Source: Dehalococcoidia bacterium (GTDB taxonomy: Bacteria > Chloroflexota > Dehalococcoidia > Plut-88900). From it: DNA of 64,000 bases. Position 1 is the stretch's first letter, and every line of letters starts with the position of its first letter. Shown here piece after piece: positions 3,035-54,420 of the stretch. The stretch is taken from assembly GCA_965207225.1 (NCBI GenBank), contig CBDBLV010000005.1, positions 224,001 to 288,000 of the forward strand. The letters are read 5' to 3'. The position numbers and the translations under genes are program-made. The notes beneath the pieces were generated by a model that saw only the letters and a list, made by a program, of their open reading frames with translations, was not told where the DNA came from and did not search any database.

Positions 3035-3090
3035 CTACATTTGTTCTTGACTTCTAAAACAGAACGTATATACTGTTAGCAAATCTGTTC
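3035..3090 (+). promoter_or_regulatory. Sigma70-type promoter of the capsid operon, overlapped by LexA-like boxes
   Basis: TTGACT (3047-3052), 16 nt, TATACT (3069-3074); degenerate GAAC-N4-GTTC sites CTACATTTGTTC (3035-3046), GAACGTATATAC (3062-3073), GCAAATCTGTTC (3079-3090); AAGGAGG RBS before 3107. Confidence 0.6.
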
Positions 3091-36032: not shown

Positions 36033-37208
36033 TTATGCCCCCCTCGGGAGGCCGAGGCCGCGGGTGGCGATGATGTTGCGCTGGACCTCGCTGGTGCCGC
36101 CGGCTATGGTGCGGCTGATGGCGTTCAGGTAGGTCCTTTCGACGTAGCCCTTGAAGGGTGCCCACTTGGAGTCTTCCGTCAGCTGCCCCGACATGCCCAG
36201 TATCTGCATGGCCAGGTTGACGCACTCCTGTACCATTTCAGCCCCGTAGGCCTTGGCCACGGACGCTTCGTAGTTGGGCACCTGGCCGACACTCTGCAGC
36301 CACATAACCCGGTAGGAGAGCATCCGCGAAATCTCGGCGTTGATGCGCATCTCGGCGAGCTTGCCCTTGGTGCCCGGTTCGTCGGCCATGACGCCGCCGT
36401 TCCAGGGCGTGTCTTTGACGTACTGGAGCAGGTCGTCGATCATTCGCCGGGTGTCGGCGGAGTTCTCGATGCCCGTGCGTTCGAAGTCGAGGGTCGACAT
36501 GGCGGCGTACCAGCCCCGGTTCACCTCGCCAATCACGTTCTCCTTGGGCACCCGGACGTTGTCGAGGAAAATCTCGTTGAAGCGGTGGTGGCCCGTGAGG
36601 TCGGTGATGCCGCGCACCTCGACGCCGGGGGTCTTCATGTCGATGAGGAAGTAGGTGATGCCTCGGTGCTTGGGGGCGTCGGGGTCCGTGCGGGCGAGGA
36701 GATGGCACCAGTCCGACACGTGGGCGCCGCTGGACCATATCTTCTGGCCGGTAATAACGAAGTCGTCGCCGTCCTCCACTGCCCTCGTCGAAAGCGAGGC
36801 GAGGTCGGAGCCCGACTCCGGTTCGCTGAACCCCTGGCACCAGTTGACACTCCCATCGGATATGGGCCGCAGGTGCTCGAGCTTCTGCTGTTCCGTGCCG
36901 TGGATCATGAGGCAGGGGCCTATGAACCCGACACCCTGGATGTCCTTGCCCGGGGCCCGGTGATAGGCCATCTCCTCGCTGTAGATCATCGACTGTCCCG
37001 GCGAAGCGTCCGATCCCCCGTACTCCTTGGGCCAGGAGATCGCCAGCCAGCCCTTTTCTCCCAGCTTCTTCCTCATCTCCAGGGTGAAGGGCCACACGCT
37101 CTCATCGTAGGCCTCTTCGCCCCACCAGTTGTCGGGCAGCTGGTCCTGGAGGAAGGTGGTGAGGTCGCTCCTGAACTGCCTGTCTTCCTCGCTGAAAGTG
37201 AACTCCAT
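36033..37208 (-). CDS. Acyl-CoA dehydrogenase, alpha-type
   Basis: WCQGFSEP, LDFER, IAGGTSEVQRNIIATRGLGLPR. Confidence 0.95.
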   Translation of the reverse strand: MEFTFSEEDRQFRSDLTTFLQDQLPDNWWGEEAYDESVWPFTLEMRKKLGEKGWLAISWPKEYGGSDASPGQSMIYSEEMAYHRAPGKDIQGVGFIGPCLMIHGTEQQKLEHLRPISDGSVNWCQGFSEPESGSDLASLSTRAVEDGDDFVITGQKIWSSGAHVSDWCHLLARTDPDAPKHRGITYFLIDMKTPGVEVRGITDLTGHHRFNEIFLDNVRVPKENVIGEVNRGWYAAMSTLDFERTGIENSADTRRMIDDLLQYVKDTPWNGGVMADEPGTKGKLAEMRINAEISRMLSYRVMWLQSVGQVPNYEASVAKAYGAEMVQECVNLAMQILGMSGQLTEDSKWAPFKGYVERTYLNAISRTIAGGTSEVQRNIIATRGLGLPRGA

Positions 37209-37217
37209 CGGATGCTC

Positions 37218-38312
37218 CTATGCCATGCTCGATAGACCCGAGACCAGGGTCCGGTGTACTTCGGAAGTGCCGAGATAAATGGATGCGGCGGATGACTCCA
37301 AATAAAGGCGCTGCACGGGCCCCTGGAGACCTTGTCCCTGGAGGCCGATTGCGTTGAATGCCGTCTCCGCGACTCTCTGAAAGACCTCTGAACTGAAGAG
37401 TTTGGCCATTGATGCCCGACGCCTGGACTGCTCACTCCCTCGTTCGGGCCGAAGGCTGCGATAGGATAGCAGACGGGCAACTTCGATGTCCACAGAAGCC
37501 TCGGCGAGGCGGGCCCTTCGACCCGTGCTGACTGCCCCGTGATCTATGGTGAAATCCAGCATTCGTCGGGCCCAACCGATGTGCTCGAAGCCGGCGCGGG
37601 CCTCGGTGAGGAACTCTTCCACGATCTCCCACCCCCGACCCCTCTCCCCAAGGATGGCCGACTCCGGGACGACGACGTCATCGAGAAATATCTCCGAGAA
37701 GATTCGACCCGTTGTGTACTCGGTGGGGTTCAGGAAGATGCCGGGCGTCGACATGTCCAGGAGGAACCATGTCAGTCCCTCGCGCCCCGATGAACCCTCG
37801 TCTGTCCGGGCCAGCAGGTGACACCACCCCGAGTTTTGGGCCCACTCGCCGTAGTCCTTCTGCCCGTTCAGGATGAAGCCGCAGTCTTGCTTCCTGGCCC
37901 GGGTCCTGATGTTGGCGAGGTCGGTGCCGGCCAGGGGCTCGGTGAACCCGACACACCACCACTCCCGGCCATCCGCCAACGGTCCGAGGTGATCTTGCTG
38001 CTGTTCTCGGGTGCCGTGCCTCAGGAGGAGGGGCCCGGCGAGGTCGGTGCCGTGGTCGTTGGCCCGGGGCACGAGGTGATAGGCCAACTCCTCCCACAGC
38101 ATCGCAGCTTTGACCGGGGAAGCCTCCCCGTAGGGCGGCACCCACCCGAGGGTCAGCCACCCCCTCTCCCCCAACCCCTCCCTGACCACCCGGGCGCGGG
38201 CCTGGTACTCCTCGTCGTCTCGGGGCATGTCCCAGCCGGCGGTGACATCGGCCAAATAGGCACGGGCGTCGGACTGGAAGGCGAGTTCCTCGGGGGAGGG
38301 GTGGAAGTTCAT
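37218..38312 (-). CDS. Acyl-CoA dehydrogenase, divergent alpha-type
   Basis: WCVGFTEPLAGTDLA, IYLGTSEVHR; FER motif replaced by EAR. Confidence 0.85.
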   Translation of the reverse strand: MNFHPSPEELAFQSDARAYLADVTAGWDMPRDDEEYQARARVVREGLGERGWLTLGWVPPYGEASPVKAAMLWEELAYHLVPRANDHGTDLAGPLLLRHGTREQQQDHLGPLADGREWWCVGFTEPLAGTDLANIRTRARKQDCGFILNGQKDYGEWAQNSGWCHLLARTDEGSSGREGLTWFLLDMSTPGIFLNPTEYTTGRIFSEIFLDDVVVPESAILGERGRGWEIVEEFLTEARAGFEHIGWARRMLDFTIDHGAVSTGRRARLAEASVDIEVARLLSYRSLRPERGSEQSRRRASMAKLFSSEVFQRVAETAFNAIGLQGQGLQGPVQRLYLESSAASIYLGTSEVHRTLVSGLSSMA

Positions 38313-38354
38313 GGGGAGAGGCGCAAGACGCCCTTGTTCAGGCGCTGTAACGAC

Positions 38355-38834
38355 TCAAAACCAGGCTTTACGGCCCTTGACGTAGGTGGCTTCGAATTCG
38401 GCGTCGGGCTTGGTGAGGTAGATGATGCCCTCGACCAGGGCGATTATGCCTATCACCAGCAATACGATGAGCCCGATGCCGAACACAAATAACAGCGCAA
38501 TCCCGAGAATGAACAGAACCAGCATCAAGGCCCCCTGCCCCGAGTAGCCCAGGTAGAACTTGTGCGCCCCGAGGGTCCCGAACAGGATGGCGAGTATTCC
38601 CGCCACCACCTTGTTCTTTTCGCTAGGGGCGGTCGCCGGTGCTTCTTCGCGGACGAGATAGATGCTTACCGCCTGGTCGGTGTCGGCGGCGACCTGGAAG
38701 TCAACGTGGACGCCCTGGACGGGCAGGTCCTGCTCCCTCCATTGGGGGCCCTCAAAAGTGTAGCGCCGACCATCGTCGCCGGAGATGACGCCTGCGTTGT
38801 CCTGGACGGAGTAGCTGAGGACTCGGCCTTTCAA
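38355..38834 (-). CDS. TM2-domain membrane protein with N-terminal cold-shock/OB-like domain
   Basis: GVISGDDGRRYTF...VDFQ, then KNKVVAGILAILFGTLGAHKFYLG. Confidence 0.88.
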   Translation of the reverse strand: MKGRVLSYSVQDNAGVISGDDGRRYTFEGPQWREQDLPVQGVHVDFQVAADTDQAVSIYLVREEAPATAPSEKNKVVAGILAILFGTLGAHKFYLGYSGQGALMLVLFILGIALLFVFGIGLIVLLVIGIIALVEGIIYLTKPDAEFEATYVKGRKAWF

Positions 38835-38846
38835 GGTTGGACCCTC

Positions 38847-40022
38847 CTACGTCCCCCGAGGCAGCCCCAGCCCCCGACGCGCGATGATCCCCCTCTGCAC
38901 TTCCGAGGTGCCGGAGTAGATAGCCCCGGCCACGACGTTCAGGTAGAAGTTGGGAACGACACCCTCCAGGGCGGCGTACTTGGACCCTTCGTGGAGCTGA
39001 CTCCCGAGACCCAGGATGTGGGTGAAGGTGTTCGCCACCTGGATCCACATCTCCGACCCGTACAGCTTGCCTATCGAGGCCTCGTGGTTGGGCACGAGAC
39101 CTGCGCCCTGCATCCAGGCGATGCGGTAGCACAGCAGCCGGCTGACTTCGATGTCGATGGCGGCCTCGGATAGTTTGCCCTTTACGCTTGGATCATCGAT
39201 GAGGGTTTTGCCGTTGACCCTGGTTTCCTCGGCGTAGCGCTTGACGTCTTCATAGACCCGTCGGGCGCGGGCCGGGTACTCGATGCCCGACCTCTCGAAG
39301 TCCAGCGCCGACATCGCCGCATACCAACCCCGGTTCTTTTCGCCGAGCATGTTCTTCTTGGGCACCCGGACGTTGTCGAAGGTGACCTCGTTGAAGTGGT
39401 GACTTCCCGCCATGGTTATCAGGGGCCGGATGGAGATGCCTGGGGTGGTCATGTCCAGAAGGAAGTAGGTGATGCCCCGGTGCTTGGGGGCATCGGGGTC
39501 CGTGCGGGTCAGAATGTGCATCCACGTGGCCAGGTGGGCGAAGCTGGTCCATATCTTGCGGCCGTTGATAACGTAGTCGTCTCCGTCCTCCACGGCCCGG
39601 GTCTGGAGGCCCGCCAGGTCGGAACCGGCCTCGGGTTCACTGAAACCCTGGCACCAGAAGGCCTCGCCCCTTGAGATACGGCTCAGGTGCTCCTTCTTCT
39701 GCTCCTCCGTACCGTGGATGATGATGGTCGGGCCTACGAAGTCGATACCTTGGTCCTCGATCTTGGTGGCGCCGCGGTAGCTGATCATCTCCTTGTAGAT
39801 GAGTTGCATGACAGGCGATGCGCCGCCCCCGCCGTACTCCTTGGGCCAGGCCATGGTGCGCCAGCCCTTCTCGCCGAACTTGCGGCGCATCTCCATCTCC
39901 TGCCTGCCGACGGCGTAGATGTCGGGCTGAGGCTCGTCCCAGTCCTCGGGCATCTCGGTGTCCAGGAACTCGGTGAGCTCCTTCTGAAAGGCCTTTTCCT
40001 CGGTGGTAAGTGCGAAATCCAT
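38847..40022 (-). CDS. Acyl-CoA dehydrogenase, alpha-type
   Basis: WCQGFSEPEAGSDLA, LDFER, IYSGTSEVQR. Confidence 0.95.
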   Translation of the reverse strand: MDFALTTEEKAFQKELTEFLDTEMPEDWDEPQPDIYAVGRQEMEMRRKFGEKGWRTMAWPKEYGGGGASPVMQLIYKEMISYRGATKIEDQGIDFVGPTIIIHGTEEQKKEHLSRISRGEAFWCQGFSEPEAGSDLAGLQTRAVEDGDDYVINGRKIWTSFAHLATWMHILTRTDPDAPKHRGITYFLLDMTTPGISIRPLITMAGSHHFNEVTFDNVRVPKKNMLGEKNRGWYAAMSALDFERSGIEYPARARRVYEDVKRYAEETRVNGKTLIDDPSVKGKLSEAAIDIEVSRLLCYRIAWMQGAGLVPNHEASIGKLYGSEMWIQVANTFTHILGLGSQLHEGSKYAALEGVVPNFYLNVVAGAIYSGTSEVQRGIIARRGLGLPRGT

Positions 40023-40172
40023 GACGGCTCCTTTACAGGGTGCGCGGGTATGGGGCTATTGTATTCGGGCGGGGGGTGGGGGGCAAACGGGGGGAGTTGA
40101 CAGGCTAAACTGAGATTACGTAGTCTGATTGCTCAAAGGTGCACCCTGCCGTGGGCCTGGGAGGGCTAGAGA

Positions 40173-40379
40173 ATGAAACTGAATGTCACCATCGATCGAG
40201 ATGAAGACGGCGTCTGGATTGTCGAGTGCCCGTCGATTCCCGGTTGCGTTAGCCAAGGGGCCACGAAAGACGAAGCCCTGGTCAACATTCGGGAAGCCAT
40301 TGCCCTTTGCATCGAAGTGCGCGCTGAACAGGGATTGCCGTTAGCCGTTGAGACGCAGCAGGTGGAAGTTACCCTTTAA
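40173..40379 (+). CDS. hicB: HicB-family antitoxin (short form)
   Basis: DEDGVWIVECPSIPGCVSQGATKDEALVNIREAI. Confidence 0.9.
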   Translation: MKLNVTIDRDEDGVWIVECPSIPGCVSQGATKDEALVNIREAIALCIEVRAEQGLPLAVETQQVEVTL

Positions 40380-40437
40380 TGCCTCGGCTGCAGGTTGGGA
40401 GGGACCCCGGACGGAAGCGGTGGGGTGAGGAAGAAGC

Positions 40438-40899
40438 CTAAAGGCCTCGGAGGTGGGCGAAGTTTACGGCGGTATCCGGAGCCTGAGCCCAAGCGGCTAG
40501 GTACAGATCTAGGTCAACTGTCACTAGGGGTGTGGCGGACGATAGGGTCTGCAGGAGAGCTGCGTCAGTAAGCCCCAGTCTAGTGAACGCGTCGTTGGAT
40601 GATGCCTCGGTGCTAGTGATGACGATTTCCCGACTGGTTTCGATAACGTGGCGGAGCATATCAAAAAAGCGGGACCGGTCGGGTTCCCTATGTTGAGCGA
40701 GCAGGTTCGAAGTTTCCGTGAGGGTGTTGGGAGTGACGAATACCTGATCAACTGTTGTCAGCAGATCATTCAACGCATCGTAGTCTTCGACCGTAAATGC
40801 CTGCAACCGTCTGTGTCTCTGGATGAGATGTCGGCCCACATTTCCGACTACCAGAAGCACCAACAGGTTGCTGTCGACGAAATATCCAGTCGGAGGCAA
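40438..40899 (-). CDS. PIN-domain protein
   Basis: FVDSNLLVL, TPNTLTETSNL, LGLTDAALL, LVTVDLDL. Confidence 0.85.
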   Translation of the reverse strand: MPPTGYFVDSNLLVLLVVGNVGRHLIQRHRRLQAFTVEDYDALNDLLTTVDQVFVTPNTLTETSNLLAQHREPDRSRFFDMLRHVIETSREIVITSTEASSNDAFTRLGLTDAALLQTLSSATPLVTVDLDLYLAAWAQAPDTAVNFAHLRGL

Positions 40900-40903
40900 A
40901 GAG

Positions 40904-41188
40904 TCAGTCCCGCGTGACCAGGATGCGGTCTTTCAGGGACTCGACTTTGCCGCTCTGGTCGTCGACCTGGACTACCTTATAGGAGCGCTCAAACGGGCTG
41001 GCTAATTTTTCCGCGGCGGTCTGGGGGTTTCTTCGGTGCCAGGGTCTCGAAAAACCTATAGTGATCTTCCAAGTGCCCGACTCATCTTCGTAGACGACTT
41101 CCTCCAAGCCGACATTGGCAGTAGACTCGCTTTCGAATATCTCCGAAACATATTGCTTGGCAATTTGTACGGCTTGTTTCACGTCCAT
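40904..41188 (-). CDS. Hypothetical protein, likely partner of downstream PIN protein
   Basis: MDVKQAVQIAKQY...LEEV...WKITIGF...RSYKVV; 4 nt from PIN gene. Confidence 0.8.
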   Translation of the reverse strand: MDVKQAVQIAKQYVSEIFESESTANVGLEEVVYEDESGTWKITIGFSRPWHRRNPQTAAEKLASPFERSYKVVQVDDQSGKVESLKDRILVTRD

Positions 41189-41232
41189 CTTGTCACCCCG
41201 ATGTGGTGTTACAAGATTAGATTATAGCCCCC

Positions 41233-42411
41233 CTAAGCCCCCCTCGGCAGCCCCAGCCCCCGAGTCGCGACCACGTTGCGTTGGATCTCCTGGGAGCCCG
41301 ACTCTATGGTGTAGGGCACCGCGAACAGGTACTGGTTCGAGATGAACCCCTGCAGTTCAGCATATTTGGAGCCCGCTTCCAGCTGACCCTTCAGCCCCAT
41401 CACTTCCATCCCCACCCGGGCCAGCTTCTGCGACGTCTGGGTGCTCAGCAGCCTCAGCAGCGATGCTTCCATGTTCGGGACTATGCCCTCGGCCTGCATC
41501 CAGGCGATTCGGTAGGCCATCATGCGGGAGGTCTCCAGGTCGACGGCCACTTCGGCGAGCTTGTGGCGGACTATCGCGTCTTGGGCCAGGGTATGGCCGT
41601 TGACCGTGGTATCGTTGGCGTATCCGATTAGCAGGTCGAGGATGCGCTTGCCACCGGCGGGGTGGGTGATGCCCGTGCGCTCGAAGTCCAGCAGGGTCAT
41701 GGCGACGTACCAGCCCCGGTTCACCTCGCCCAGCACGTTATTCTTCGGGACCCGGACGTTGTCGAAGAACTCCTCGTTGAAGGAGCTCTCGCCGCTCATC
41801 TCCTGGATGGGCCGGACGGTGATGCCCGGCGTGTCCATGTCCAGCAGGAAGAAGGTGATGCCCCGGTGCTTGACGGCCTCGGTGTCCGTGCGGGCCAGCA
41901 GGAACATGTGGTCGGCGAACTGGGCGTAGCTGGACCAGATCTTCTGCCCGTTGATCACGTAGTCGTCGCCGTCCAGCACCGCCCGAGTCTGCAACGAAGC
42001 AAGGTCGGAGCCCGACTCCGGCTCGCTGAACCCCTGGCACCACACTGCTTCACCTCTCGCTATCGCGCCGAGATACGCCCTCTTTTGCTCTTCCGTGCCA
42101 TGGTGCATGAGGGTCGGGCCCAGGAGGTTGAGTCCGAAGGTGTCGATTCCCGGGGCCCCGCGGTACTCCCACTCCTCCTGGAAGATGAGCTGGGATATAG
42201 CGGATGCGCCCTGGCCGCCGTACTCCTCGGGCCAGCCCATGGTGTTCCAGCCCTTCTCGGCGAGCATCTTCCGCCACTTCATCTCCGTTTCCTTGTCGAC
42301 GTGGGCGAAGGATATGGGGCCGCCAATCCAGTCGGAGGGTAGGTTTTCGTCTAGGAAGTCCCTCACCTCCTGGCGAAATGCGGTCTGCTCTTCGGTCAGG
42401 TGCAAGTCCAT
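41233..42411 (-). CDS. Acyl-CoA dehydrogenase, alpha-type
   Basis: WCQGFSEP, LDFER, IESGSQEIQRNVVATRGLGLPR; AAGGAG RBS before ATG 42411. Confidence 0.95.
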   Translation of the reverse strand: MDLHLTEEQTAFRQEVRDFLDENLPSDWIGGPISFAHVDKETEMKWRKMLAEKGWNTMGWPEEYGGQGASAISQLIFQEEWEYRGAPGIDTFGLNLLGPTLMHHGTEEQKRAYLGAIARGEAVWCQGFSEPESGSDLASLQTRAVLDGDDYVINGQKIWSSYAQFADHMFLLARTDTEAVKHRGITFFLLDMDTPGITVRPIQEMSGESSFNEEFFDNVRVPKNNVLGEVNRGWYVAMTLLDFERTGITHPAGGKRILDLLIGYANDTTVNGHTLAQDAIVRHKLAEVAVDLETSRMMAYRIAWMQAEGIVPNMEASLLRLLSTQTSQKLARVGMEVMGLKGQLEAGSKYAELQGFISNQYLFAVPYTIESGSQEIQRNVVATRGLGLPRGA

Positions 42412-42488
42412 CTGTTCACTCCTTGTTGAGCGGGAATGGGGCAAAGCCCAGGGTCATGATGTCGGGCGGGGTGGGCCGGGTGTCGGGG

Positions 42489-44451: not shown

Positions 44452-44847
44452 ATGGCACTGACCCTGGACGAGTCAATCAAGCTGTGTGAAGCCGCCATAG
44501 CTAAGGCAAACGAGCTGGGAATCAAGATAAGTGTAGCCGTCTGTGACCCGGGCGGAAAACTGAAAGCCTTCGCCAGGATGGATGGGGCTATCTGGGCCAG
44601 CGTCTACGGCTCCCAGGGCAAGGCCACGACGTCCGTCGGGTTCGGCAGGCCCAGCGTGATGCTCCAGGAGAGAGCAGACCACCCGACCATCAAGGGAATC
44701 ATCGCCGCTTCGGGAAGCAACATGATCCCGGGCCAGGGTGCTATACCCGTCATCAGGAACGGTGTCGTGGAGGGGGCCTGCGGGGTGGGCGGGGGCACGG
44801 GTGAGGAAGACGAGATCTGCGCCCAGGCGGCCGTGGACTCTTTATAA
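44452..44847 (+). CDS. GlcG/HbpS-family heme-binding protein
   Basis: ISVAVCDPGG, ARMDGA, KATTS, GAIPV..GVVEGACGVGG..EEDEICA. Confidence 0.92.
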   Translation: MALTLDESIKLCEAAIAKANELGIKISVAVCDPGGKLKAFARMDGAIWASVYGSQGKATTSVGFGRPSVMLQERADHPTIKGIIAASGSNMIPGQGAIPVIRNGVVEGACGVGGGTGEEDEICAQAAVDSL

Positions 44848-44944
44848 CTTTACCTCCCCCCCGCTCGCACTCCTTGGGGGACTCGGGGCTGGCTTAAGAG
44901 AGCCTCAGCACGAGCGGCCTAACCCCCCGACACCGCCGCAAGGC

Positions 44945-46453
44945 TTAGTCCGACCGGTAGTACTCCATGCCCAGGTGGGTGATCTGCTCTTCGCCCATCA
45001 GCCAGCGTAGGGTGTTCTTCAGCTTGGTCTGCTGGATGAAAAGGTCGTGCTCCGGGTATACAGATGGCGCGTGCTGGGGGCTCTTGAAGTAGAAGGATAG
45101 CCACTCCTGGATGCCCGCCAGCCCCGACCTCTGCGCCAGGTCCATGAACAGCACGAGGTCCAGCACCAGCGGCGCCGCCAGGATGGAGTCCGAGCACAGG
45201 AAATTGACCTTTAGCTGCATCCGCTTCCCCAGCCACCCAAAGAGGTCGATGTTGTCCCAGCCCTCCTTGTTGTCGCCTCTCGGGGGATAGTAGTTGATGC
45301 GCACCTTGTGGTAGGCGTCCGAGTAAAGCTCGGGGTACAGTTCGGGTTGCAGGATGTACTCCAGCACCCCCAGCTTAGACTCCTCTTTCGTCCTGAAGTT
45401 CTCGGGTTCGTCCAGCACCTCGCCGTCCCGGTTCCCGAGGATGTTCGTCGAGAACCAGCCGTCCATGCCCAGCATCCGGGCCTTGAGCATCGGGCCGATG
45501 ACCGTCTTGACCAGGGTCTGGCCGGTCTTGAAATCCTTGCCGCATACGGGCACGCCATTGTCTCGGGCCAGCTTCTCCAGCGCGGGGATGTCGACGGTCA
45601 GGTTGGGAGCGCCGTTGGCAAAGGGCACGCCCTCCATCAGCGCGGCGTAGGCGTATATCATCGAGGGGGCGATCTTCTCATCGTTGTCATGCAGTGCCCC
45701 AACGAAATCTTCGATACCCTGGTGCACCTCGTTTTCCGTAACGAATTTTTCGGTCGAGGCGCACCAGACCATGACCAGGCGGTCGCAGCCGTTTTCCTCT
45801 TTGAAACGACGGATGTCGCTGCGGATGGCATCAACGGCGGCCAGCTTGGAGTCCATCGACTTGACGTTCACGCCATCGATGCGCTTCACGTAGTCCTGGT
45901 CGAATACGGCCGGCATGGGCTCGATGGACTTCAGGAAGTCGGCGATGGGTTCCACCTGGTCGTATCGGTCCAGGACCCCGGCCTTTGAGGCTGCCTGGTA
46001 GGCGTTGTCGGGTATCGGGTCCCAGGCCCCGAAGACCAACTGGTCCAGGTCGGCCAAGGGCACGAAGTCCTTTATGAGCGGGGTCCGGCCGTCGGGCCTT
46101 TTGCCCAGGCGGATCGTAGCCATCTGGGACACCGACCCCACCGGGCTCCCCGTGCCCCGACGTATGTGCTCCACGCCCGCGATGAAGGTGGATGACACCG
46201 CCCCCAGCCCCACCAGCAGCACCCCGAGCTTGCCGTCGGCGGGTTGGATGTCGGGGGCGCCGGGCGCCACGAAGTCCTTGGGTTCCAGGGCTATACCCTG
46301 CTGGTAAGCAAGTTCCAAGAGCTTTTCGTGCCACTGGGCCGGGATCCGGGCCGTCCTCACCCAGTGCTGCACCGTGCTCTGTCGCTTGCCCAGCAGTGCT
46401 GCCAGCGCTGACTGCCCACCGAATCGTTCGATTATCTGCTTTGCGTTATTCAT
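44945..46453 (-). CDS. ino1: Inositol-3-phosphate synthase with N-terminal Cro-like HTH fusion
   Basis: GLGAVSST, GKDFKTGQT, WFSTNILGNRDG, YYPPRGDNKEGWD, DSILAAPLVLDL; extra N-terminal ~62 aa FGGQSALAALLG..QSTVQHW...RIP. Confidence 0.92.
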   Translation of the reverse strand: MNNAKQIIERFGGQSALAALLGKRQSTVQHWVRTARIPAQWHEKLLELAYQQGIALEPKDFVAPGAPDIQPADGKLGVLLVGLGAVSSTFIAGVEHIRRGTGSPVGSVSQMATIRLGKRPDGRTPLIKDFVPLADLDQLVFGAWDPIPDNAYQAASKAGVLDRYDQVEPIADFLKSIEPMPAVFDQDYVKRIDGVNVKSMDSKLAAVDAIRSDIRRFKEENGCDRLVMVWCASTEKFVTENEVHQGIEDFVGALHDNDEKIAPSMIYAYAALMEGVPFANGAPNLTVDIPALEKLARDNGVPVCGKDFKTGQTLVKTVIGPMLKARMLGMDGWFSTNILGNRDGEVLDEPENFRTKEESKLGVLEYILQPELYPELYSDAYHKVRINYYPPRGDNKEGWDNIDLFGWLGKRMQLKVNFLCSDSILAAPLVLDLVLFMDLAQRSGLAGIQEWLSFYFKSPQHAPSVYPEHDLFIQQTKLKNTLRWLMGEEQITHLGMEYYRSD

Positions 46454-46461
46454 AATTGGCA

Positions 46462-46490
46462 ATTGTAACGATATTTTCGTTATCAGTCAA
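46462..46490 (-). promoter_or_regulatory. Sigma70 promoter of ino1 with palindromic operator
   Basis: TTGACT, 17 nt, TACAAT, then ATG 8 nt later; inverted repeat TAACGA-N5-TCGTTA (46466-46482) in the spacer. Confidence 0.75.
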
Positions 46491-46547
46491 TCTTGAACCA
46501 GCAGTACCAGACAAGGTGAGATACAATCTGCCCACGAGAGAAACCTT

Positions 46548-46931
46548 GTGACTACCAGTGAAACCAACCCCGACCTCATATTCGCCGACGCCCGCCGAAT
46601 GTATTCTTCGGCCATGCACCGCATGGACGCCGACGACATCCGTGATGCCGCAGAAAAGGCTTGGTGCGCCACCCTCCGCGCCACCGAGGCCCTGGTCCTG
46701 GCCCGGACCGGCCAGTCTCCCGCCACATCTACCGCCGCCGGTAGAAGGCTGCGCTTGCTAGTAGAGACTAATCCTTCATTGGAAGCCCTCTCGCTCCGGT
46801 ACTCCGATCGCCTAGTAGTCCTCCGCGACGAATGCCTCCGCCATGAATACTGCCAGCCCGTCGTGACCGAGCGGCTCATTCGCGAGACTCCTGACTACAT
46901 CCGGGACGCCGAAGCCCTGTCCCACAACTAG
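46548..46931 (+). CDS. PaREP1/HEPN-like protein (paralog of 28533-28916)
   Basis: DDIRDAAEKAWCATLRA...TERLIRET.DYIRDAE. Confidence 0.75.
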   Translation: MTTSETNPDLIFADARRMYSSAMHRMDADDIRDAAEKAWCATLRATEALVLARTGQSPATSTAAGRRLRLLVETNPSLEALSLRYSDRLVVLRDECLRHEYCQPVVTERLIRETPDYIRDAEALSHN

Positions 46932-47043
46932 CCCAACCCCATCCCCTGCAGGGGCAATCCCTCGTGGCTGTCCTAGGCCGCTACCTACCCTACCCCCGTC
47001 CCTTTGGCCCCACCCCCTGCCCTGCCCGTATAATGACCTCATC

Positions 47044-47679
47044 ATGGTTAGTGGAATCAATCCCGAAAACGTCAGCGGGGTGGCCCTGGCCGGGGGAATG
47101 AGCAGGAGGCTCGGGAGGAACAAGGCCGTCGAGGAGATAGGTGGCGAGCGGCTTATCGAGCGGGTCATCAACAGGCTGTCCGAGGTTAGCTCCGAGACGG
47201 TCGTCGTGGTGGCGGAGGAGTCCCGGGCCCAGGCCCTCGACCTGCCCGACGGGGTACGCACCGCCGCCGACATCTATCCGGGCCACGGGTCCCTGGGCGG
47301 CATCTTCACCGGTCTCTCCGCCGCCCGCGGAGACTGCGGCATAGTCGTGGCTTGCGACATGCCCTTTCTCAATACCGGCCTGCTCCAGTTCATGGTCGAC
47401 CTCGCACCCGATTTCGACGTGGTAGTCCCGAGGGTCGACGGCAGGCCCGAGCCCCTGCACGCCATATATTCGAAAAGCTGCCTCGAACCGATAGAGAGCA
47501 GGTTGAAGCGGCAGGACCTGAAGATCGCCCTCTTTTTCGAGGAGGTCAGAGTCGCTTATGTGGACGAGGATGACATAGACCTCTTCGACCCGGAGCGGCT
47601 GAGCTTCTTCAACGTCAACACCCAGGAAGACCTGGACAAGGCCCTGGCCCTTGAGGCACAGGGCTATTCCGACGAGTAG
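47044..47679 (+). CDS. mobA: Molybdenum cofactor guanylyltransferase
   Basis: LAGGMSRRLGRNKA, GSLGGI, VACDMPF, EPLHAIY, FFNVNTQED. Confidence 0.95.
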   Translation: MVSGINPENVSGVALAGGMSRRLGRNKAVEEIGGERLIERVINRLSEVSSETVVVVAEESRAQALDLPDGVRTAADIYPGHGSLGGIFTGLSAARGDCGIVVACDMPFLNTGLLQFMVDLAPDFDVVVPRVDGRPEPLHAIYSKSCLEPIESRLKRQDLKIALFFEEVRVAYVDEDDIDLFDPERLSFFNVNTQEDLDKALALEAQGYSDE

Positions 47680-47687
47680 CAGTCCTC

Positions 47688-49475
47688 ATGCACGCGTATT
47701 GCGGCCAGGTCCTGGTCATCGACCTTCCCAGCGGAGCGTCTACGTTCGAGCCCCTCACGCCCGAGGAGCAGGTCTCCTTCATCGGTGGGGCGGGGCTGGG
47801 GGCATGGTTGCTCTACAGGCACTGCCCTCCGGGGGTCGACCCCCTCTCTCCAGAGTCCCCGTTAATCTTCGCCTGGGGCCCGTTCTTCGGGGCGGGGGTG
47901 CCGGGCTCGGCGAAGATGGCCGTGGCGTGCAAGTCGCCGCTCACGGGATTCGTCGGCGACTCCCTGTCCTCTGGACCCGTGGCAGAAGAGCTGTCCCGGA
48001 TGCCTTTCGATGCACTGGTCATCAAGGGCCGGGCGTCGGGACCCGCGGTGCTGCACATTGATGGTGAGTCGGTCAAAGTGCTGGATGCCGGAGAGTTGGC
48101 AGGTCTGTCGGCACAGGAAACCGCCACAAAGATGAACTCCATTGCCGGCTTTAGTGAGGCCCAGGTCGCGGTCATTGGCCCGGCCGGCGAGGCCCTGGTC
48201 AGCTTTGCCTGCATCAGCAACGGGGGTCGGCAGGCAGGAAGAACCGGCGCGGGCGCGGTGATGGGCTCGAAGAACCTGAAGGCCATAGCCATGCACGGCA
48301 ATGCAACTCTCCCAACCCCCCACCCCGATCTCGCTAACTTGAATGTAAGGCTCGGACGGGCCATGGAATCCAAGTCCACTGCCAAGTACCGGGGCCCGGG
48401 CACCGTGGGCAACCTGGCCAAGTTGAACGCGGCGGGCGCCCTCCCCGCATATAACTTCCGCCAGTACACCTTTGACGGCGCAGATAGGCTGAGCGTCGAG
48501 AGCTTGGAAAAGAGACGAGGCCAAGGCTCGGGTGGGATGTCCCGGGAGTGGGAGCATGTCTACTCGGCCAGGGGGCGCAGGGGAAGGACCCGGCTGGAGT
48601 ACGAGAGCCTCTTCGCCTTCGGCCCGATGTGCGGAATCAGCGACCCCGACATCGTAATCCGGGCGGCGGGTCTGTGCGATGACCTGGGCATCGACACCAT
48701 AAGCACCGGCGGCACCATTGCCTGGGCCATGGAGTCCTTTGAACGCGGACTCCTCACAATTGCCGACACAGGTGGCCTGGACCTGCGCTTTGGCAACGGG
48801 GATGCGCTGCTTGCGGCCATCGAGTCGATAGGGCATAGGGAGGGTATCGGGGAGCTTTTGTCGCAGGGCAGCCGAGGGGCAGCGGCCCAACTCGGCGGCG
48901 TCTCCGAGGCATGGGCCATGCACGTCAAGGGGCTGGAGATGCCTGGCTACCATCCCGGCAACCTTCGGCACCTGGCCCTCGCCCTTGCAGTCAGCCCCCG
49001 GGGCGCGTGCCATAACCGGGCCTCGGCCTACGATTTCGACCTCAGCGACGAGGATGCGTACCATGCCGACGCCTCGCAGATTGGCTTGGCCGTCGCCGAT
49101 GCCGAAGACTTCGCCGCCGTACTGGACTCTCTTGTCCTCTCCAAATTCGTGCGCCGTGCCCTGCGAGACTTCTTCCCTGAAGCTGCCCGGGTCTACCGCC
49201 TCGCCACGGGCCATGATATCGGCCCGGAAGATTTGCGGGCCTCGGGGGAGCGGATAAACCTGGTCCGCAAAGCTTTTAACGTCCGGGAGGGTTGGAGTCG
49301 AGAAGATGACACCCTCCCACCCCGCATCTTCGAGGGTGGTGTGGTGTCGGAGGCTGGCCTGGAAGAAATGATCGGGGCGTATTACGGCGCCCGGGGGTGG
49401 GGCAGGGAGGGGTTGCCAAGTCGGGACTCGCTCCGCGCTCTAGGCCTGAACATGCCGTCTGAAACACCTGTATAA
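47688..49475 (+). CDS. Aldehyde:ferredoxin oxidoreductase (AOR) family protein
   Basis: KSPLTG, IGPAGE, AGRTGAGAVMGSKNLKA, EYES, CDDLGIDTISTG, HVKGLE, RGACH, DDTLPPR. Confidence 0.92.
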   Translation: MHAYCGQVLVIDLPSGASTFEPLTPEEQVSFIGGAGLGAWLLYRHCPPGVDPLSPESPLIFAWGPFFGAGVPGSAKMAVACKSPLTGFVGDSLSSGPVAEELSRMPFDALVIKGRASGPAVLHIDGESVKVLDAGELAGLSAQETATKMNSIAGFSEAQVAVIGPAGEALVSFACISNGGRQAGRTGAGAVMGSKNLKAIAMHGNATLPTPHPDLANLNVRLGRAMESKSTAKYRGPGTVGNLAKLNAAGALPAYNFRQYTFDGADRLSVESLEKRRGQGSGGMSREWEHVYSARGRRGRTRLEYESLFAFGPMCGISDPDIVIRAAGLCDDLGIDTISTGGTIAWAMESFERGLLTIADTGGLDLRFGNGDALLAAIESIGHREGIGELLSQGSRGAAAQLGGVSEAWAMHVKGLEMPGYHPGNLRHLALALAVSPRGACHNRASAYDFDLSDEDAYHADASQIGLAVADAEDFAAVLDSLVLSKFVRRALRDFFPEAARVYRLATGHDIGPEDLRASGERINLVRKAFNVREGWSREDDTLPPRIFEGGVVSEAGLEEMIGAYYGARGWGREGLPSRDSLRALGLNMPSETPV

Positions 49476-49503
49476 TCTGCGCCACTCCCTGCTTGGAGGA
49501 GCC

Positions 49504-49977
49504 TTGGACAGGGAACATATCAAAGAGGTGCTCGGCGGCTTTCCGCGTCACAGGACCCACCTGCTTCCCGCTTTGCGCGCCGTCCAGGAGGAGCTGCACT
49601 GGCTCCCGACCTGGGCCATGGAGGAGATCGGCGCCTACCTGCGGGTCCCGAAGAGCGAGGTTCACGGCGTCGCATCGTCCTTCCCTGAGCTCCGGCTGAA
49701 GGAGCCCGGCCGATTCGTTCTGAGGGTATGCACGGGCCTGGCCTGCTACCTGCAAGGCAGCGCCGAAATCCTGAAGGCCGTGAGTGGGGACCTGGGCATA
49801 GGGGTCGGGGAGACCACCGACGACGGCGCCATAACCCTGGAAGAGGCCCCCTGCCTGTTCGTGTGCGCCATGGCCCCGGCCATGGAACTGGGCGGTGGCC
49901 CCTTCGGCAGGCTCACCCCCGAGGACGCCGTGGCCCGACTCCAGGCCATCCCCCGGTTCCCCCCACCCCAGCCATGA
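49504..49977 (+). CDS. NuoE-like [2Fe-2S] subunit (formate dehydrogenase gamma)
   Basis: VCTGLAC and PCLFVCAMAP ligands. Confidence 0.9.
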   Translation: MDREHIKEVLGGFPRHRTHLLPALRAVQEELHWLPTWAMEEIGAYLRVPKSEVHGVASSFPELRLKEPGRFVLRVCTGLACYLQGSAEILKAVSGDLGIGVGETTDDGAITLEEAPCLFVCAMAPAMELGGGPFGRLTPEDAVARLQAIPRFPPPQP

Positions 49978-51578
49978 CCTATCCTGAGTTAAAATCGAAG
50001 GCCGACTGCGAGGCCCAGGCTCGCTTCCCCAGGGCCCTGGTGCAGCTTGGCGGCTGCACGCGCACCGTCGGGGCGGGGGCGGTACTGCAGCTGCTCCAGG
50101 CCGCTGTAGCCAAGAAAGGCCTGATGTCTCCCGTGCTGGTGGCCGGATGCGACGGCGCCTGCCACGACGCCCCGGTCGTCATCATCGAGATGGCCGAGGG
50201 CCTCACCTTCCGGCTGACCCACGTCGGCCCCGCGGACGTGAACGAGATACTGAGTTTCTGGCTCGCCGGTCAAGCGGAATCCTCGTCGACCTGGAAGGGC
50301 ACGCCAGCGGCGTGGCCTTTGTCGGGTGATGAGTCGGGGTTCTGGGGTCGACAGGAGCGTCGGGTGATGAGGGATATTGGATACATCGACCCCCACAGCA
50401 TCGACGACTACATCTCCAAGGGCGGCTACTCCACCCTGAATAGCGTTCTCAACTCCATGACTCCCGACCAGGTGGTCGACGAGGTGGTCAGGCTGGAACT
50501 GCGAGGGCGGGGCGGGGCCTATTTCCCAGCGGGGATCAAGTGGCGCGGGGCCCGGGCCACGGGGCGCTCGCCCCGATACCTGGTAGTCAACGCAGAGGAG
50601 GGGGAGCCGGGCATATACAAAGACCGACACATCATGGAGGGCAACCCCTTCATGCTTCTTGAGGGGCTAGCTATCGCCGCGTACGCTATCGGGGCGGACA
50701 AGACCTACCTGTACGTCAACGGGGAAGCCGACGAGGCCGCGGGTCGGGTGGAGGATGCCCTGGACCTCGCCCGGGACCTGGGCTTGGCCGGCGATAACGT
50801 CCTGGGCGCCGACTTCAACCTGGACATCGAGGTGAGGCGGGGCGGCGGGGGATACGTGCTTGGGGAAGAGAGCGCCCTGATGAACAGCATCGAAGGGCAG
50901 AGGAACGTGCCCCGCACCAAGCCGCCCTTCCCGGTGGAGTCGGGGCTTTGGGGCCAGCCGACGGTGATAAACAACGTCGAGACCCTGTGCAACCTCCCCC
51001 TGCTCCTCTCCACCCCCGGCGCAGACCCATCGCCCGGGACCAAGCTGATATCACTGAGCGGTCGGGTCCAGAGGCCCGGCCTGGTGGAAGTGCCCATGGG
51101 AACCACAGTGAGGGACATCGTCTACGAGGTCGGGGGTGGGCCGCCGGATGGCTACGAAGTGACGGGTGTGGTGGCGGGGGGGCCGTCGGGTGGGCTTTTG
51201 AACGAGTCGATGCTGGACGTCGCCATCGGCCCCGGTATGCTCGACCCCGAGGGCGCGGTCCTTGGGTCGGGGGGTATCACGGTATTCGACACCAGCGTCT
51301 CGCCGGTGGAGGTTGTGAGACGGCTGGCGGCGTACAACGCGGCGGAGTCGTGCTCCAAGTGCACCCCTTGCCGTGAGGGAACGAAGCGGATGCTGGACCT
51401 GCTGGGCGCAGTGCAGAGGGGTGAGGAGGGGAGGTCGGGGCTGGAGAAGCTGGCCTACCTCAACGACGTGGTCGGGTTCGGCTCCCTGTGCGGCCTGGGA
51501 CAGATGGCCCCGGGCCCCGTGCGGTCGGGGCTGGCGCACTTCCGGGAAGCCTTTGAGGGGGCGGCGGATTCGAGTTAA
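49974..51578 (+). CDS. NuoF-like FMN/NADH-binding subunit (formate dehydrogenase beta)
   Basis: LRGRGGAYFPAGIKW, NAEEGEPG, GEESALMNSIEG, ESCSKCTPCREG, SLCGLG; ATG 49974 overlaps upstream stop. Confidence 0.92.
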   Translation: MTYPELKSKADCEAQARFPRALVQLGGCTRTVGAGAVLQLLQAAVAKKGLMSPVLVAGCDGACHDAPVVIIEMAEGLTFRLTHVGPADVNEILSFWLAGQAESSSTWKGTPAAWPLSGDESGFWGRQERRVMRDIGYIDPHSIDDYISKGGYSTLNSVLNSMTPDQVVDEVVRLELRGRGGAYFPAGIKWRGARATGRSPRYLVVNAEEGEPGIYKDRHIMEGNPFMLLEGLAIAAYAIGADKTYLYVNGEADEAAGRVEDALDLARDLGLAGDNVLGADFNLDIEVRRGGGGYVLGEESALMNSIEGQRNVPRTKPPFPVESGLWGQPTVINNVETLCNLPLLLSTPGADPSPGTKLISLSGRVQRPGLVEVPMGTTVRDIVYEVGGGPPDGYEVTGVVAGGPSGGLLNESMLDVAIGPGMLDPEGAVLGSGGITVFDTSVSPVEVVRRLAAYNAAESCSKCTPCREGTKRMLDLLGAVQRGEEGRSGLEKLAYLNDVVGFGSLCGLGQMAPGPVRSGLAHFREAFEGAADSS

Positions 51579-51672
51579 AGGCCGCTCAAGGTGAGCGGGT
51601 TGGGTGAGGCATGGGTCTCACGGGTGTAGAATAGGCACTAACTCAGTCTCATGGCGGCACGGAGACAACGCA

Positions 51673-54420
51673 GTGACCATCAACCTCACAATTGACGGCA
51701 TGCCTATCGAGGCGCGGGAGGGGAGTTCCATCCTGGAGGCGATTAACGCCTCCGGGACGTACATCCCCCAGCTGTGCAAGGACCCGGCCATGCCCGCCAT
51801 CGGGGCATGCAGGACTTGCCTCGTGCAGGTCGAGGGCCGACGCGGCTTCCCCGCCTCTTGTCACACCCCCGTCTCCGATGGCATGGTCGTACAGACCAAC
51901 AGCCCCGAGGTGCGGCGCATCCGCCAGGGCATCCTCGACCTCACCCTCGGCATGCTCCCCACCGAGACCCCCGGCCAGCCCCTCGCTGAGCACAAGGAAC
52001 TGAAGACCGCCTCCCGGTTCCACGACCTTCTCACCACCGGCTACGAGACCCGGGCCCGGGACCACACCGACTCCAGCAATCCCTTCTTCTCCGTGGAAAT
52101 GGATGACTGCATCCTCTGCGGACGCTGCGTCGAGGCCTGCCAGGACCTTCAGCAGATCGGGGCCATTGCGATTCTGGGGCGGGGGCAGGATGCGTTTATC
52201 GGGACGTATGGCGATGACCCCATCGCCGATTCTATATGCACGTCCTGCGGCTCCTGCGTAGCCGCCTGCCCGACCGGCGCCATCGAGCCGAAGATCAATC
52301 CAGCCAACGCCGTGAAGCAGACCTCCACAGTCTGCCCCTACTGCGGGGTGGGGTGCGGGATCGTGCTGAACACCGACAAGAACGGCAAGGTTCTGTGGGT
52401 GGACGACGACCCGGAGAACCAGTCGAGCCTCGGGAAGCTGTGCGTGAAGGGCCGGTTTGGCGTGACCTTCGTGAACCACGGCGACCGGCTGACCACCCCC
52501 CTCATCCGCAAGAACGGCGTTTTCACTGAGGCATCGTGGGACGAGGCCCTGGACTACACCGCCGGCAAGCTGGTAGAGCACCGGGGGGCAACTGCCGCTC
52601 TCGCCTCTGCCAAGGCCACAAACGAGGACGGCTACGTCCTCCAGAAGTTCATGCGCCTCGCCCTGGGCACCAACAGCATCGACCACTGCACCCGGCTGTG
52701 CCACTCGCCGTCGGTGGAGGCCATGCTCAGGTCCCTCGGGAGCGGGGCGACCAGCAACTCCTACCTCGACTACGAAAAGGCCGGGTGCCTGATAATCGCC
52801 GGCTGTGACCCGAGCGCCAACCACCCCGTGGCCGCGACCCGCTTTCGCAAGGCCGTCGACCTGTACGGCGCCCAGCTTATAGTCATCAACCCCAAGCGCA
52901 TCGAGTTGTGCGACTACGCCTACCTCTGGCTTCGAGAAAAACCCGGAACCGACGTCGCCCTATTCAACGGCATGGCCAAGGTCATCCTCGACGAGGGCCT
53001 GGCCGACGAGCAGTTCGTCGCCGAACGCACCGAGGGTTTCGAGGAGTGGAAGGCGTCTCTTGCCCAGTACACCCCCGACTTCGTAGAGTCGATAACCGGC
53101 GTCCCAAAGGAGCAGATGATCGAGGCGGCCCGCATCTACGCCCGACCCCCCTTCAGCGGCTCGTGCTTCGTGTGGGGCATGGGCCTGACGCAGCACACCA
53201 ACGGCACCGCCAACTGCCACGCCGTGCTTAACCTGGCGCTGGTGTCGGGGCAGATGGGGCGTCGGGGCAACGGCATATCGCCGCTGCGGGGACAAAACAA
53301 CGTCCAGGGTTGCGGCGACGCCGGCTGCACGCCGAGCAACCTGCCCGGTTACCAGGACCTCGACCCCGAGTCCCTGGAGAAGTTCGCCCGGGCCTGGGGC
53401 GGCCGTCTGCCGGAGGAGTCGGGATTCGTGGTCACCGACATGATGAGGGAGGCTGAGGAAGGTCGGCTGGAGGCCATGTACGTGGTCGGGGAGAACCCGC
53501 TGCTCAGCGAGCCCGACCTCCGCCACGCCCGCGAGGCCATCGAAAACCTGAAATTCCTGGTAGTCCAGGACATCTTCCTCAGCGAGACCGCAGAGATCGC
53601 CGACGTGGTGCTCCCCGCAACCAGCTTCGCCGAGAAGGACGGGACGTTCACCAACAGCGAACGTCGGGTGCAGCGGGTTCGCAAGGCCATAGAGCCCGTC
53701 GGCCAGAGCAGGCCCGACTGGGATATCACCTCGGACCTGGCGCGTCGGGTGTGCCGGAGGCTCGGCATGGACGAGTCCCAGTTTGACTACGGCCACCCGA
53801 AGGAGATCTTCGACGAGATGGCCGCTCTCACGCCCATAATTGCAGGTATTACCTACGACCGGCTGGACGCGGAGGGCGGTATCCAGTGGCCCTGCCCCAC
53901 CCCCGACCACCCAGGCACCCCCATACTCTACGAGGACAGCTTCCCGAGGGGTCTCGGCAAGTTCGTGCCCGTCGAGCAGACCGAGCCTGCTGCCGAGCTT
54001 CCCAACCGCCGCTTCCCGTTGATCCTGAACACGGGCCGGACGCTATACCACTGGCATGGCGGCACCATTACCCGTCGGGTGGAGGGCCTGGTTGCCCGGG
54101 CCCCGGAACTGATCGTGACGATCCACCCCAAGGACGCCAATAGGGCGGGGATTTCGGACAAGGAAGAGGTGAGGGTGGAATCGAGGAGGGGGGAGCTGGA
54201 GGGCCGGGCGTCGGTCACCGACGCCGTGAGGGAAGGCGAGATATTCGTGCCCTTCGTGAAGCTCAAGGAGTCGGCGGCAAACTTCCTGACCAACCGGGCC
54301 TTTGACCCCGCCTCCAAGATCCCGGAATTCAAGGTCTGCGCCGTCCGCGTCGAGCCCAAGTCCTCCCCGAGGAAGGTGAGGAAAGGGCCCCGCCCCATGA
54401 CCGCCGTCATGCGGCCTTAG
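51673..54420 (+). CDS. fdhF: Formate dehydrogenase alpha subunit (Mo/W-bisPGD, Cys-type)
   Basis: N-terminal 2Fe-2S and 4Fe-4S motifs (CILCGRCVEAC, CTSCGSCVAACP), CPYCGVGC, catalytic CTRLCH, PLRGQNNVQG, TNSERRVQ; GTG at 51673 after GGAG. Confidence 0.93.
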   Translation: MTINLTIDGMPIEAREGSSILEAINASGTYIPQLCKDPAMPAIGACRTCLVQVEGRRGFPASCHTPVSDGMVVQTNSPEVRRIRQGILDLTLGMLPTETPGQPLAEHKELKTASRFHDLLTTGYETRARDHTDSSNPFFSVEMDDCILCGRCVEACQDLQQIGAIAILGRGQDAFIGTYGDDPIADSICTSCGSCVAACPTGAIEPKINPANAVKQTSTVCPYCGVGCGIVLNTDKNGKVLWVDDDPENQSSLGKLCVKGRFGVTFVNHGDRLTTPLIRKNGVFTEASWDEALDYTAGKLVEHRGATAALASAKATNEDGYVLQKFMRLALGTNSIDHCTRLCHSPSVEAMLRSLGSGATSNSYLDYEKAGCLIIAGCDPSANHPVAATRFRKAVDLYGAQLIVINPKRIELCDYAYLWLREKPGTDVALFNGMAKVILDEGLADEQFVAERTEGFEEWKASLAQYTPDFVESITGVPKEQMIEAARIYARPPFSGSCFVWGMGLTQHTNGTANCHAVLNLALVSGQMGRRGNGISPLRGQNNVQGCGDAGCTPSNLPGYQDLDPESLEKFARAWGGRLPEESGFVVTDMMREAEEGRLEAMYVVGENPLLSEPDLRHAREAIENLKFLVVQDIFLSETAEIADVVLPATSFAEKDGTFTNSERRVQRVRKAIEPVGQSRPDWDITSDLARRVCRRLGMDESQFDYGHPKEIFDEMAALTPIIAGITYDRLDAEGGIQWPCPTPDHPGTPILYEDSFPRGLGKFVPVEQTEPAAELPNRRFPLILNTGRTLYHWHGGTITRRVEGLVARAPELIVTIHPKDANRAGISDKEEVRVESRRGELEGRASVTDAVREGEIFVPFVKLKESAANFLTNRAFDPASKIPEFKVCAVRVEPKSSPRKVRKGPRPMTAVMRP

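Follow-up and report, generated by a model that had tools for sequence, protein, structure and literature searches.

A 64,000-nucleotide stretch of contig CBDBLV010000005.1 (Dehalococcoidia bacterium, GenBank assembly GCA_965207225.1, positions 224,001 to 288,000 of the forward strand), referred to here as the window, carries on its minus strand a gene in which a Cro-like helix-turn-helix (HTH) domain is fused to myo-inositol-3-phosphate synthase (MIPS), preceded by a promoter that contains a 17-bp palindrome. The open reading frame (ORF) listing gives a single open frame at 44945..46462, which runs through both domains without a stop or frameshift. The gene itself is placed at 44945-46453, because the ATG at 46453 matches the first residue of 23 aligned relatives (alignment A1, 24 fused proteins comprising the window protein and 23 relatives) and because the upstream TTG at 46462 falls within the -10 hexamer. 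The features of the locus, with the evidence for each, are:

44945..46453, minus strand: whole gene, Cro-like HTH and MIPS fusion, 502 codons plus stop (ORF, aligned relatives, Pfam, NCBIfam)
46268..46453, minus strand: Cro-family HTH domain, residues 1-62 (NF046037, PDB profile, AlphaFold2 model, Foldseek, non-synonymous and synonymous differences)
46352..46381, minus strand: presumed recognition helix, residues 25-34 (QSTVQHWVRT), third helix of the model (AlphaFold2 model, conservation, Cro alignment)
46229..46267, minus strand: interdomain linker, residues 63-75 (variable columns 95-107 of alignment A1; lower confidence and no regular structure in two models)
44948..46228, minus strand: complete MIPS catalytic unit, NAD-binding and catalytic domains, residues 76-502 (Pfam, match to 7nwr)
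46485..46490, minus strand: -35 hexamer TTGACT (promoter scan, promoter alignment)
46466..46482, no strand assigned: presumed operator, 17-bp palindrome TAACGA-N5-TCGTTA (repeat and pattern search, conservation)
46462..46467, minus strand: -10 hexamer TACAAT (promoter scan, promoter alignment)

An earlier note, made from the letters of this stretch, had described the first ~62 residues as a Cro/YdaS-type HTH domain joined in frame to an intact MIPS, and both parts of that description hold. Model, profile and fold all place residues 1-62 in the Cro family. The NCBIfam model NF046037, 'carph-isopro domain', matches residues 8-59 with 64.6 bits against a cutoff of 38, and the Pfam models YdaS (residues 8-43, 26.7 bits, cutoff 30) and P22_Cro (N-terminus, 18.6 bits, cutoff 30.2) give matches below their cutoffs. 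When a profile built from 47 domain sequences was compared with the PDB, it matched Xfaso 1 Cro (3bd1, E 3.7e-8), an Xfaso/Pfl6 hybrid (E 1.1e-7) and P22 Cro (E 1.9e-4). An AlphaFold2 model of the domain, computed from the alignment of these 47 sequences (mean predicted local distance difference test score, pLDDT, 86.5) has four helices at residues 3-10, 14-21, 25-34 and 39-52. The top ranks of a Foldseek search of the PDB with this model, 3bd1, 5w8y, 6on0, 2hin and 1rzs, are all Cro proteins (Xfaso 1, the hybrid, N15 and P22; TM 0.55-0.68) and include the N15 Cro operator complex, 6on0. In the 24 fused proteins, Q25, S26, Q29 and W31 of the helix at 25-34 are invariant and T27 and H30 are at least 90% conserved; by alignment with Cro this is presumed to be the recognition helix. 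The proportion of non-synonymous differences in the domain (pN 0.03-0.24) lies well below that of synonymous differences (pS 0.40-0.87) over 20 comparisons, in the same range as in enzyme codons 76-200. The domain is thus under purifying selection as strong as that on the enzyme part, and is therefore translated and functional.

The enzyme part was recognised by PF07994 on residues 79-486 (E 1.6e-96, 324 bits, cutoff 25), which covers the profile from 1 to 321 of 321, and by PF01658 on residues 314-426 (E 7.9e-32, 110 bits, cutoff 27). Residues 67-493 match PDB entry 7nwr, the protein BT_1526, with an E-value of 9.9e-159, and the catalytic part is 65-73% identical to 29 unfused enzymes of other phyla (alignment A3). 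The short actinobacterial INO1 of the mycothiol type was considered and rejected as an assignment, since TIGR03450 scores 27.2 bits against an equivalog cutoff of 638; the enzyme belongs to the longer MIPS type represented by BT_1526. That protein, from Bacteroides thetaiotaomicron, is described as a tetrameric MIPS active on glucose-6-phosphate (PMC9246714). One jgi name for a fused protein is 'myo-inositol-1-phosphate synthase'. These matches are best explained by a gene that encodes an active myo-inositol-3-phosphate synthase.

The distribution of the fusion was examined among listed protein matches and in genomic DNA. All 120 protein relatives listed (80-98% identity, 486-543 residues) are fused and cover 96-100% of the query; two of them, of 486 residues, begin 16 residues in. 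Relatives were also drawn from one genome per species, in which 571 stretches encode a relative; the best 80 were kept for comparison. Thirty-two of these best 80 loci are fused. Their matches begin at query residue 1-4, apart from locus L032, which lies at a contig end and matches from residue 22. By record title, 30 of the 32 belong to the Chloroflexota, one to Candidatus Dormiibacterota, and one is a contig labelled Acidobacteriota. The 30 comprise 23 Dehalococcoidia, Dehalococcoidales or SAR202, two 'Chloroflexota', two Ktedonobacterales, one Chloroflexia and two Thermomicrobiales. At the 48 other loci, from Acidobacteriota, Gemmatimonadota, Actinomycetota and others, the match starts at query residue 21-74, and a hidden Markov model (HMM) search finds no N-terminal domain. 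The same search of the window and all 80 loci gave 33 hits, all of them in fused genes, and no split form, in which the domain would be encoded beside an unfused MIPS, was found within 5 kb in the 80 loci and the window. The HTH-MIPS fusion is thus the standard form of the enzyme in its lineage. It had seemed unusual in the earlier note, where actinobacterial regulation of ino1 was the standard of comparison; the fusion proves to be the local norm, and the comparison missed its target, as the closest genomes are Dehalococcoidia of the Chloroflexota. The closest of the best 80 loci is a Dehalococcoidia chromosome (L001), where the protein is 97% identical and ~40-45% of synonymous sites differ.

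The contig labelled Acidobacteriota (L034, 2160-3813) has a promoter and further upstream DNA closely like those of the Ktedonobacterales loci L031 and L023, and its frame is broken, the ORF ending at 3083 and the match running to 3813. It is probably a mis-binned or error-containing contig and not a true acidobacterial fusion.

A promoter scan of 44700-47100 found exactly one sigma-70-like site, TTGACT-17-TACAAT, at 46490..46462 on the minus strand. This site matches 10 of the 12 consensus positions (shuffles average 0.6), and the ATG lies 8 nt after its -10 element TACAAT. The palindrome TAACGA/TCGTTA, with a 5-nt centre at 46466-46482, fills the promoter spacer, overlaps the first two bases of the -10 hexamer and is the only exact match in the 64 kb. 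A near-consensus, apparently leaderless promoter containing an inverted repeat, as first described, is therefore what the promoter scan and the repeat and pattern search recover. A palindrome of 6+6 bases is weak evidence when taken alone; its conservation at related loci raises it above chance.

To count the palindrome at related loci, the 400 nt upstream of each gene were scanned for the 12 specified positions with at most two mismatches. Locus L032, without upstream DNA, was excluded, leaving 31 fused loci. The palindrome was present at 29 of the 31 fused loci and at none of the 48 unfused loci, so that it occurs only with the fused form, and the two remaining fused loci (L002 and L011) have three-mismatch versions at the expected place. 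Elsewhere in the loci it was rare, with 10 matches in 314,963 nt at fused loci and six in 491,307 nt at unfused loci (together 16 in 806,270 nt). From this background ~0.25 hits would be expected in the 31 upstream windows, against 31 observed.

Thirty-two promoter regions were aligned, anchored by coordinates, and the -35, -10 and start spacing were counted by eye. The palindrome lies between the -35 and the -10 in every fused promoter aligned, and six columns are invariant: A24, C26, G36, T38, A39 and T43, that is, bases 2 and 4 of the left half-site, the G and TA of the right half-site, and the last T of the -10. At the -35 place 27 of the 32 promoters have TTG, and 18 have TTGAC. All 32 promoters have a -10 of the form TAnnnT, in which the TA is contributed by the final two bases of the palindrome. 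The start codon, an in-frame ATG or GTG, comes 6 nt (8 promoters), 7 nt (13), 8 nt (7) or 9 nt (2) after the -10, accounting for 30 of the 32. So short a gap cannot accommodate a ribosome-binding site, which makes a leaderless mRNA probable.

The DNA shared between loci ends close to the promoter. When 46454-46500 of the window was compared with 4955-5000 of L001, only ~45 nt upstream of the ATG were common to both, ending just past the -35; beyond this the sequences are unrelated. The flanking DNA and the neighbouring genes differ between loci; promoter, operator and gene travel as one compact unit.

Several further features of these upstream regions were recorded. At L002 (about 4874-4890) and L027 (4875-4891) a good promoter-palindrome lies ~110 nt upstream, with a decayed copy near the gene. 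Two loci, L023 (3740-3787) and L024 (4929-4974), have two tandem units of palindrome and TAnnnT, ~30 nt apart. A block of ~35 nt, common to L023, L031 and L034 and situated about 90-130 nt upstream of the start codon, has no Rfam match. An Rfam scan of the window, L023, L031 and L034 returned no family, which leaves the conserved upstream DNA without a known RNA element to account for it. Within the window the only other palindrome matches in 64 kb, at 45700-45716 and 45739-45755 with two mismatches each, lie inside the MIPS gene, 39 nt apart and ~700-750 nt from the start. Both cover Glu-x-Phe-Val codons, in which GAA...TTC is inherently palindromic, and in seven of the 31 fused loci the second is found again at the same codons (+695/698). 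They may have arisen by coincidence from the coding sequence, or they may act as an auxiliary operator.

Relatives of the N-terminal domain also occur outside MIPS. A search with residues 1-65 against 1.84 billion representative proteins returned 502 proteins at E <= 0.001, of which 109 were at E <= 1e-10; the 47 sequences of the profile were taken from this set. In addition, tblastn found free-standing relatives in two phage and two plasmid records. Both free-standing relatives that were inspected occupy the position of cro. In Paracoccus phage vB_PsuS_Psul1 the relative is annotated 'Cro-like protein' and is divergent from a 'CI-like repressor'; its counterpart on an Azospirillum plasmid bears the annotation 'carph-isopro domain-containing protein', is divergent from an HTH regulator and is followed by a CII-family gene. 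The intergenic regions of the phage (L081, 2433-2503) and the plasmid (L082, 2417-2503) are repeat-rich. On the plasmid a promoter, TTGATG-17-TACAGT, stands only 6 nt before the ATG, so the leaderless layout may have come along with the cro gene. The domain is also fused to 3,4-dihydroxy-2-butanone 4-phosphate (DHBP) synthase (RibB, P0225), to a rhodanese (P0157) and to a metallo-beta-lactamase (MBL)-fold hydrolase (P0261). Other partners are MEDS sensor domains, P63C, RhuM, IalB and an Mrr-type nuclease, and the further fusion proteins listed are P0140/P0144/P0192, P0145/P0182/P0211, P0222/P0249/P0255, P0218/P0267 and P0256. All five proteins that were rescanned (the RibB, rhodanese and MBL fusions, one MEDS fusion and one free-standing member) score above the cutoff of NF046037. 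Among these fusions, the enzymes other than MIPS may likewise regulate themselves.

Negative autoregulation, in which the fused Cro domain lets this MIPS repress the promoter of its own gene, is in our view likely. Self-repression had been suggested in the earlier note, and it is the best reading because the palindrome tracks the fused form. A textbook self-repressor is laid out in this way, with a Cro-type domain and a palindrome that fills the spacer of the promoter of its own gene. Copies of the site and of the domain were sought in the 64-kb window and in ~10 kb per locus, and as no second copy of the domain lies in this DNA, the fused domain is the sole visible candidate binder there. In the proposed mechanism the MIPS tetramer would present paired HTH domains, pairing being expected because MIPS enzymes are tetramers. 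The paired domains would bind the 17-bp palindrome in the spacer of their own promoter, overlapping the -10, and occupancy of this operator would exclude RNA polymerase, so that the enzyme would limit its own synthesis. Since the transcript would start at or beside the ATG, control would be exerted at transcription initiation only. Binding of the domain to the palindrome, repression and not activation, and pairing of the HTH domains through the oligomer are what we infer from sequence.

A number of observations weigh against this conclusion. The Pfam Cro and YdaS models both score below their curated cutoffs, and the Foldseek E-values, at best 0.04, are weak, as is to be expected of a domain of only ~60 residues. 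A full-length AlphaFold2 model built on the 24 rows of alignment A1 (mean pLDDT 58, catalytic half below 50) was too poor to place the HTH domains, and is silent on how two of them would be positioned in the oligomer. Docking of the N-terminal domain (A2) on the MIPS domain (A3) gave a score of 0.00, which is no verdict and was counted neither way. The leaderless layout is not universal, the good site at L002 and L027 being ~110 nt from the start codon. Beyond the 64 kb and the ~10 kb per locus there may be a regulator gene farther away or a wider regulon. Finally, since the fused genes belong to other phyla than the unfused ones, the association of palindrome and fusion is confounded with ancestry and could reflect a separate, lineage-specific regulator.

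If such a separate regulator owned the palindrome, the HTH domain would bind other DNA, tether the enzyme to the nucleoid or mediate protein contacts. The fused/unfused contrast does coincide with phylum boundaries, which favours this explanation, but the site has stayed with the gene although everything beyond ~45 nt upstream has been replaced between the window and L001. The neighbouring genes vary by locus, no other copy of the domain was present in the DNA examined, and a Cro-type domain with a 17-bp palindrome in its own promoter is a classic self-regulating layout that is also seen in the free-standing relatives; a separate regulator is accordingly judged improbable. Less probable still, and in our view very unlikely, is that the fused domain activates transcription, or that the palindrome works without a protein partner, as an intrinsic element of the promoter or as a hairpin. 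Activators that bind between the -35 and the -10 do exist, those of the MerR type among them, and the central bases are A/T-rich throughout the 32 promoters. The spacer in the window, however, already has the optimal 17 nt between near-consensus hexamers, which need no activator; in most of the other aligned promoters, read by eye, the corresponding distance is 17 or 18 nt. Symmetric conservation of both outer half-sites around a variable centre fits a dimeric protein, and the position of the palindrome upstream of the likely transcript start argues against an RNA hairpin.

Another proposal, also put forward in the earlier note, would extend self-repression. In a full trigger enzyme, glucose-6-phosphate, NAD+/NADH or inositol-3-phosphate would switch DNA binding, and transcription would follow substrate or product. 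Across deep Chloroflexota lineages the two parts have stayed in a single chain, and purifying selection acts on each; the N-terminal domain also sits on the other small-molecule enzymes named above (P0225, P0157 and P0261), and BirA, PutA and NadR provide a precedent. The sequence, however, holds no sign of coupling between the parts, the linker being short, variable and modelled without structure, and plain concentration-dependent autorepression explains the data equally well. Ligand control of this kind is possible, and we put it forward only tentatively.

BirA, PutA and NadR are bifunctional enzyme-repressors ('trigger enzymes'), and ligand control defines all three. Like them, the HTH-MIPS protein has an N-terminal DNA-binding domain on a metabolic enzyme in one chain, with an operator (here a presumed one) that overlaps the pathway promoter; the presence of enzyme and DNA-binding domain in one polypeptide, which a trigger enzyme must have, is thus observed here. 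PutA also represses its own gene, as is proposed for HTH-MIPS. Unlike the three, the enzyme here is MIPS, the DNA-binding fold is of the all-helical Cro type, and the apparent target is only the enzyme's own monocistronic, leaderless gene. The Cro proteins of Xfaso 1 (3bd1), P22 (1rzs) and N15 (2hin, 6on0) resemble the domain in profile match, four-helix fold and a 17-bp palindromic promoter site, whereas here the domain forms the N-terminus of a 502-residue chromosomal housekeeping enzyme and has its own half-site sequence. BT_1526 is of the same enzyme family but lacks the HTH domain. No description of an HTH-MIPS fusion was found in the literature searches made, and the term 'carph-isopro' occurred in 0 papers; the combination of a Cro-type HTH domain with MIPS appears to be new, each part being a member of a known family.

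At 22 fused loci, 30 neighbouring ORFs were compared, and no constant partner gene was found among them. A link to inositol phosphates or inositol lipids is plausible only for haloacid dehalogenase (HAD) hydrolases (L002, L017 and L027), fructose-1,6-bisphosphatase (FBPase)-type phosphatases (L003, L005 and L030) and lipid-A-type acyltransferases (L021 and L029). In the window the neighbours at 36033-42444 and 47044-54420 are unrelated to inositol: four acyl-CoA dehydrogenase paralogues lie on one side of the MIPS gene, and a MobA-like transferase, an aldehyde:ferredoxin oxidoreductase, a NuoF-like flavoprotein and a molybdopterin oxidoreductase on the other. No phage context was seen among the neighbouring genes in the 64-kb window. 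A divergent ORF of 127 codons at 46548-46931 (plus strand) has no Pfam or NCBIfam match and is absent upstream of the gene in L001; a 7-nt inverted repeat at 46511-46549, with arms 25 nt apart, spans its start. In Bacteroidetes, MIPS is described as most commonly clustered with other inositol-lipid genes (PMC9246714), whereas the HTH-MIPS gene stands alone among unrelated genes. In Corynebacterium and Mycobacterium, ino1 is reported to be regulated by the LacI-type protein IpsA (PMC3899939). IpsA likewise gives the MIPS gene a dedicated transcriptional control, but it is a separate protein of a different family, whereas HTH-MIPS has its presumed regulator inside the enzyme.

How the arrangement arose is a matter for a more speculative suggestion, which we regard as somewhat unlikely in its entirety: early in the evolution of the Chloroflexota a cro gene of phage origin and its leaderless promoter with operator may have been captured as a single cassette in front of MIPS. 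The cassette would now make MIPS a metabolite-responsive self-repressor, whose affinity for DNA depends on glucose-6-phosphate, NAD+/NADH or inositol-3-phosphate, and the same portable module would give self-control to the other enzymes on which it is found (DHBP synthase, rhodanese and MBL hydrolase).

MIPS catalyses the committed step of all inositol synthesis. How it is controlled is a classic question in yeast and actinobacteria, where separate regulators are used. A major and mostly uncultured bacterial phylum instead seems to have the regulator built into MIPS. One protein and one 17-bp site would make a compact system for coupling the amount or metabolic state of an oligomeric enzyme to transcription. 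A phage Cro domain and promoter would have been reused for housekeeping control, which draws attention to a family of similar Cro-enzyme fusions. Small (~45 bp) and strongly conserved, the cassette of operator and promoter could be put to use as a genetic part in organisms without tools.

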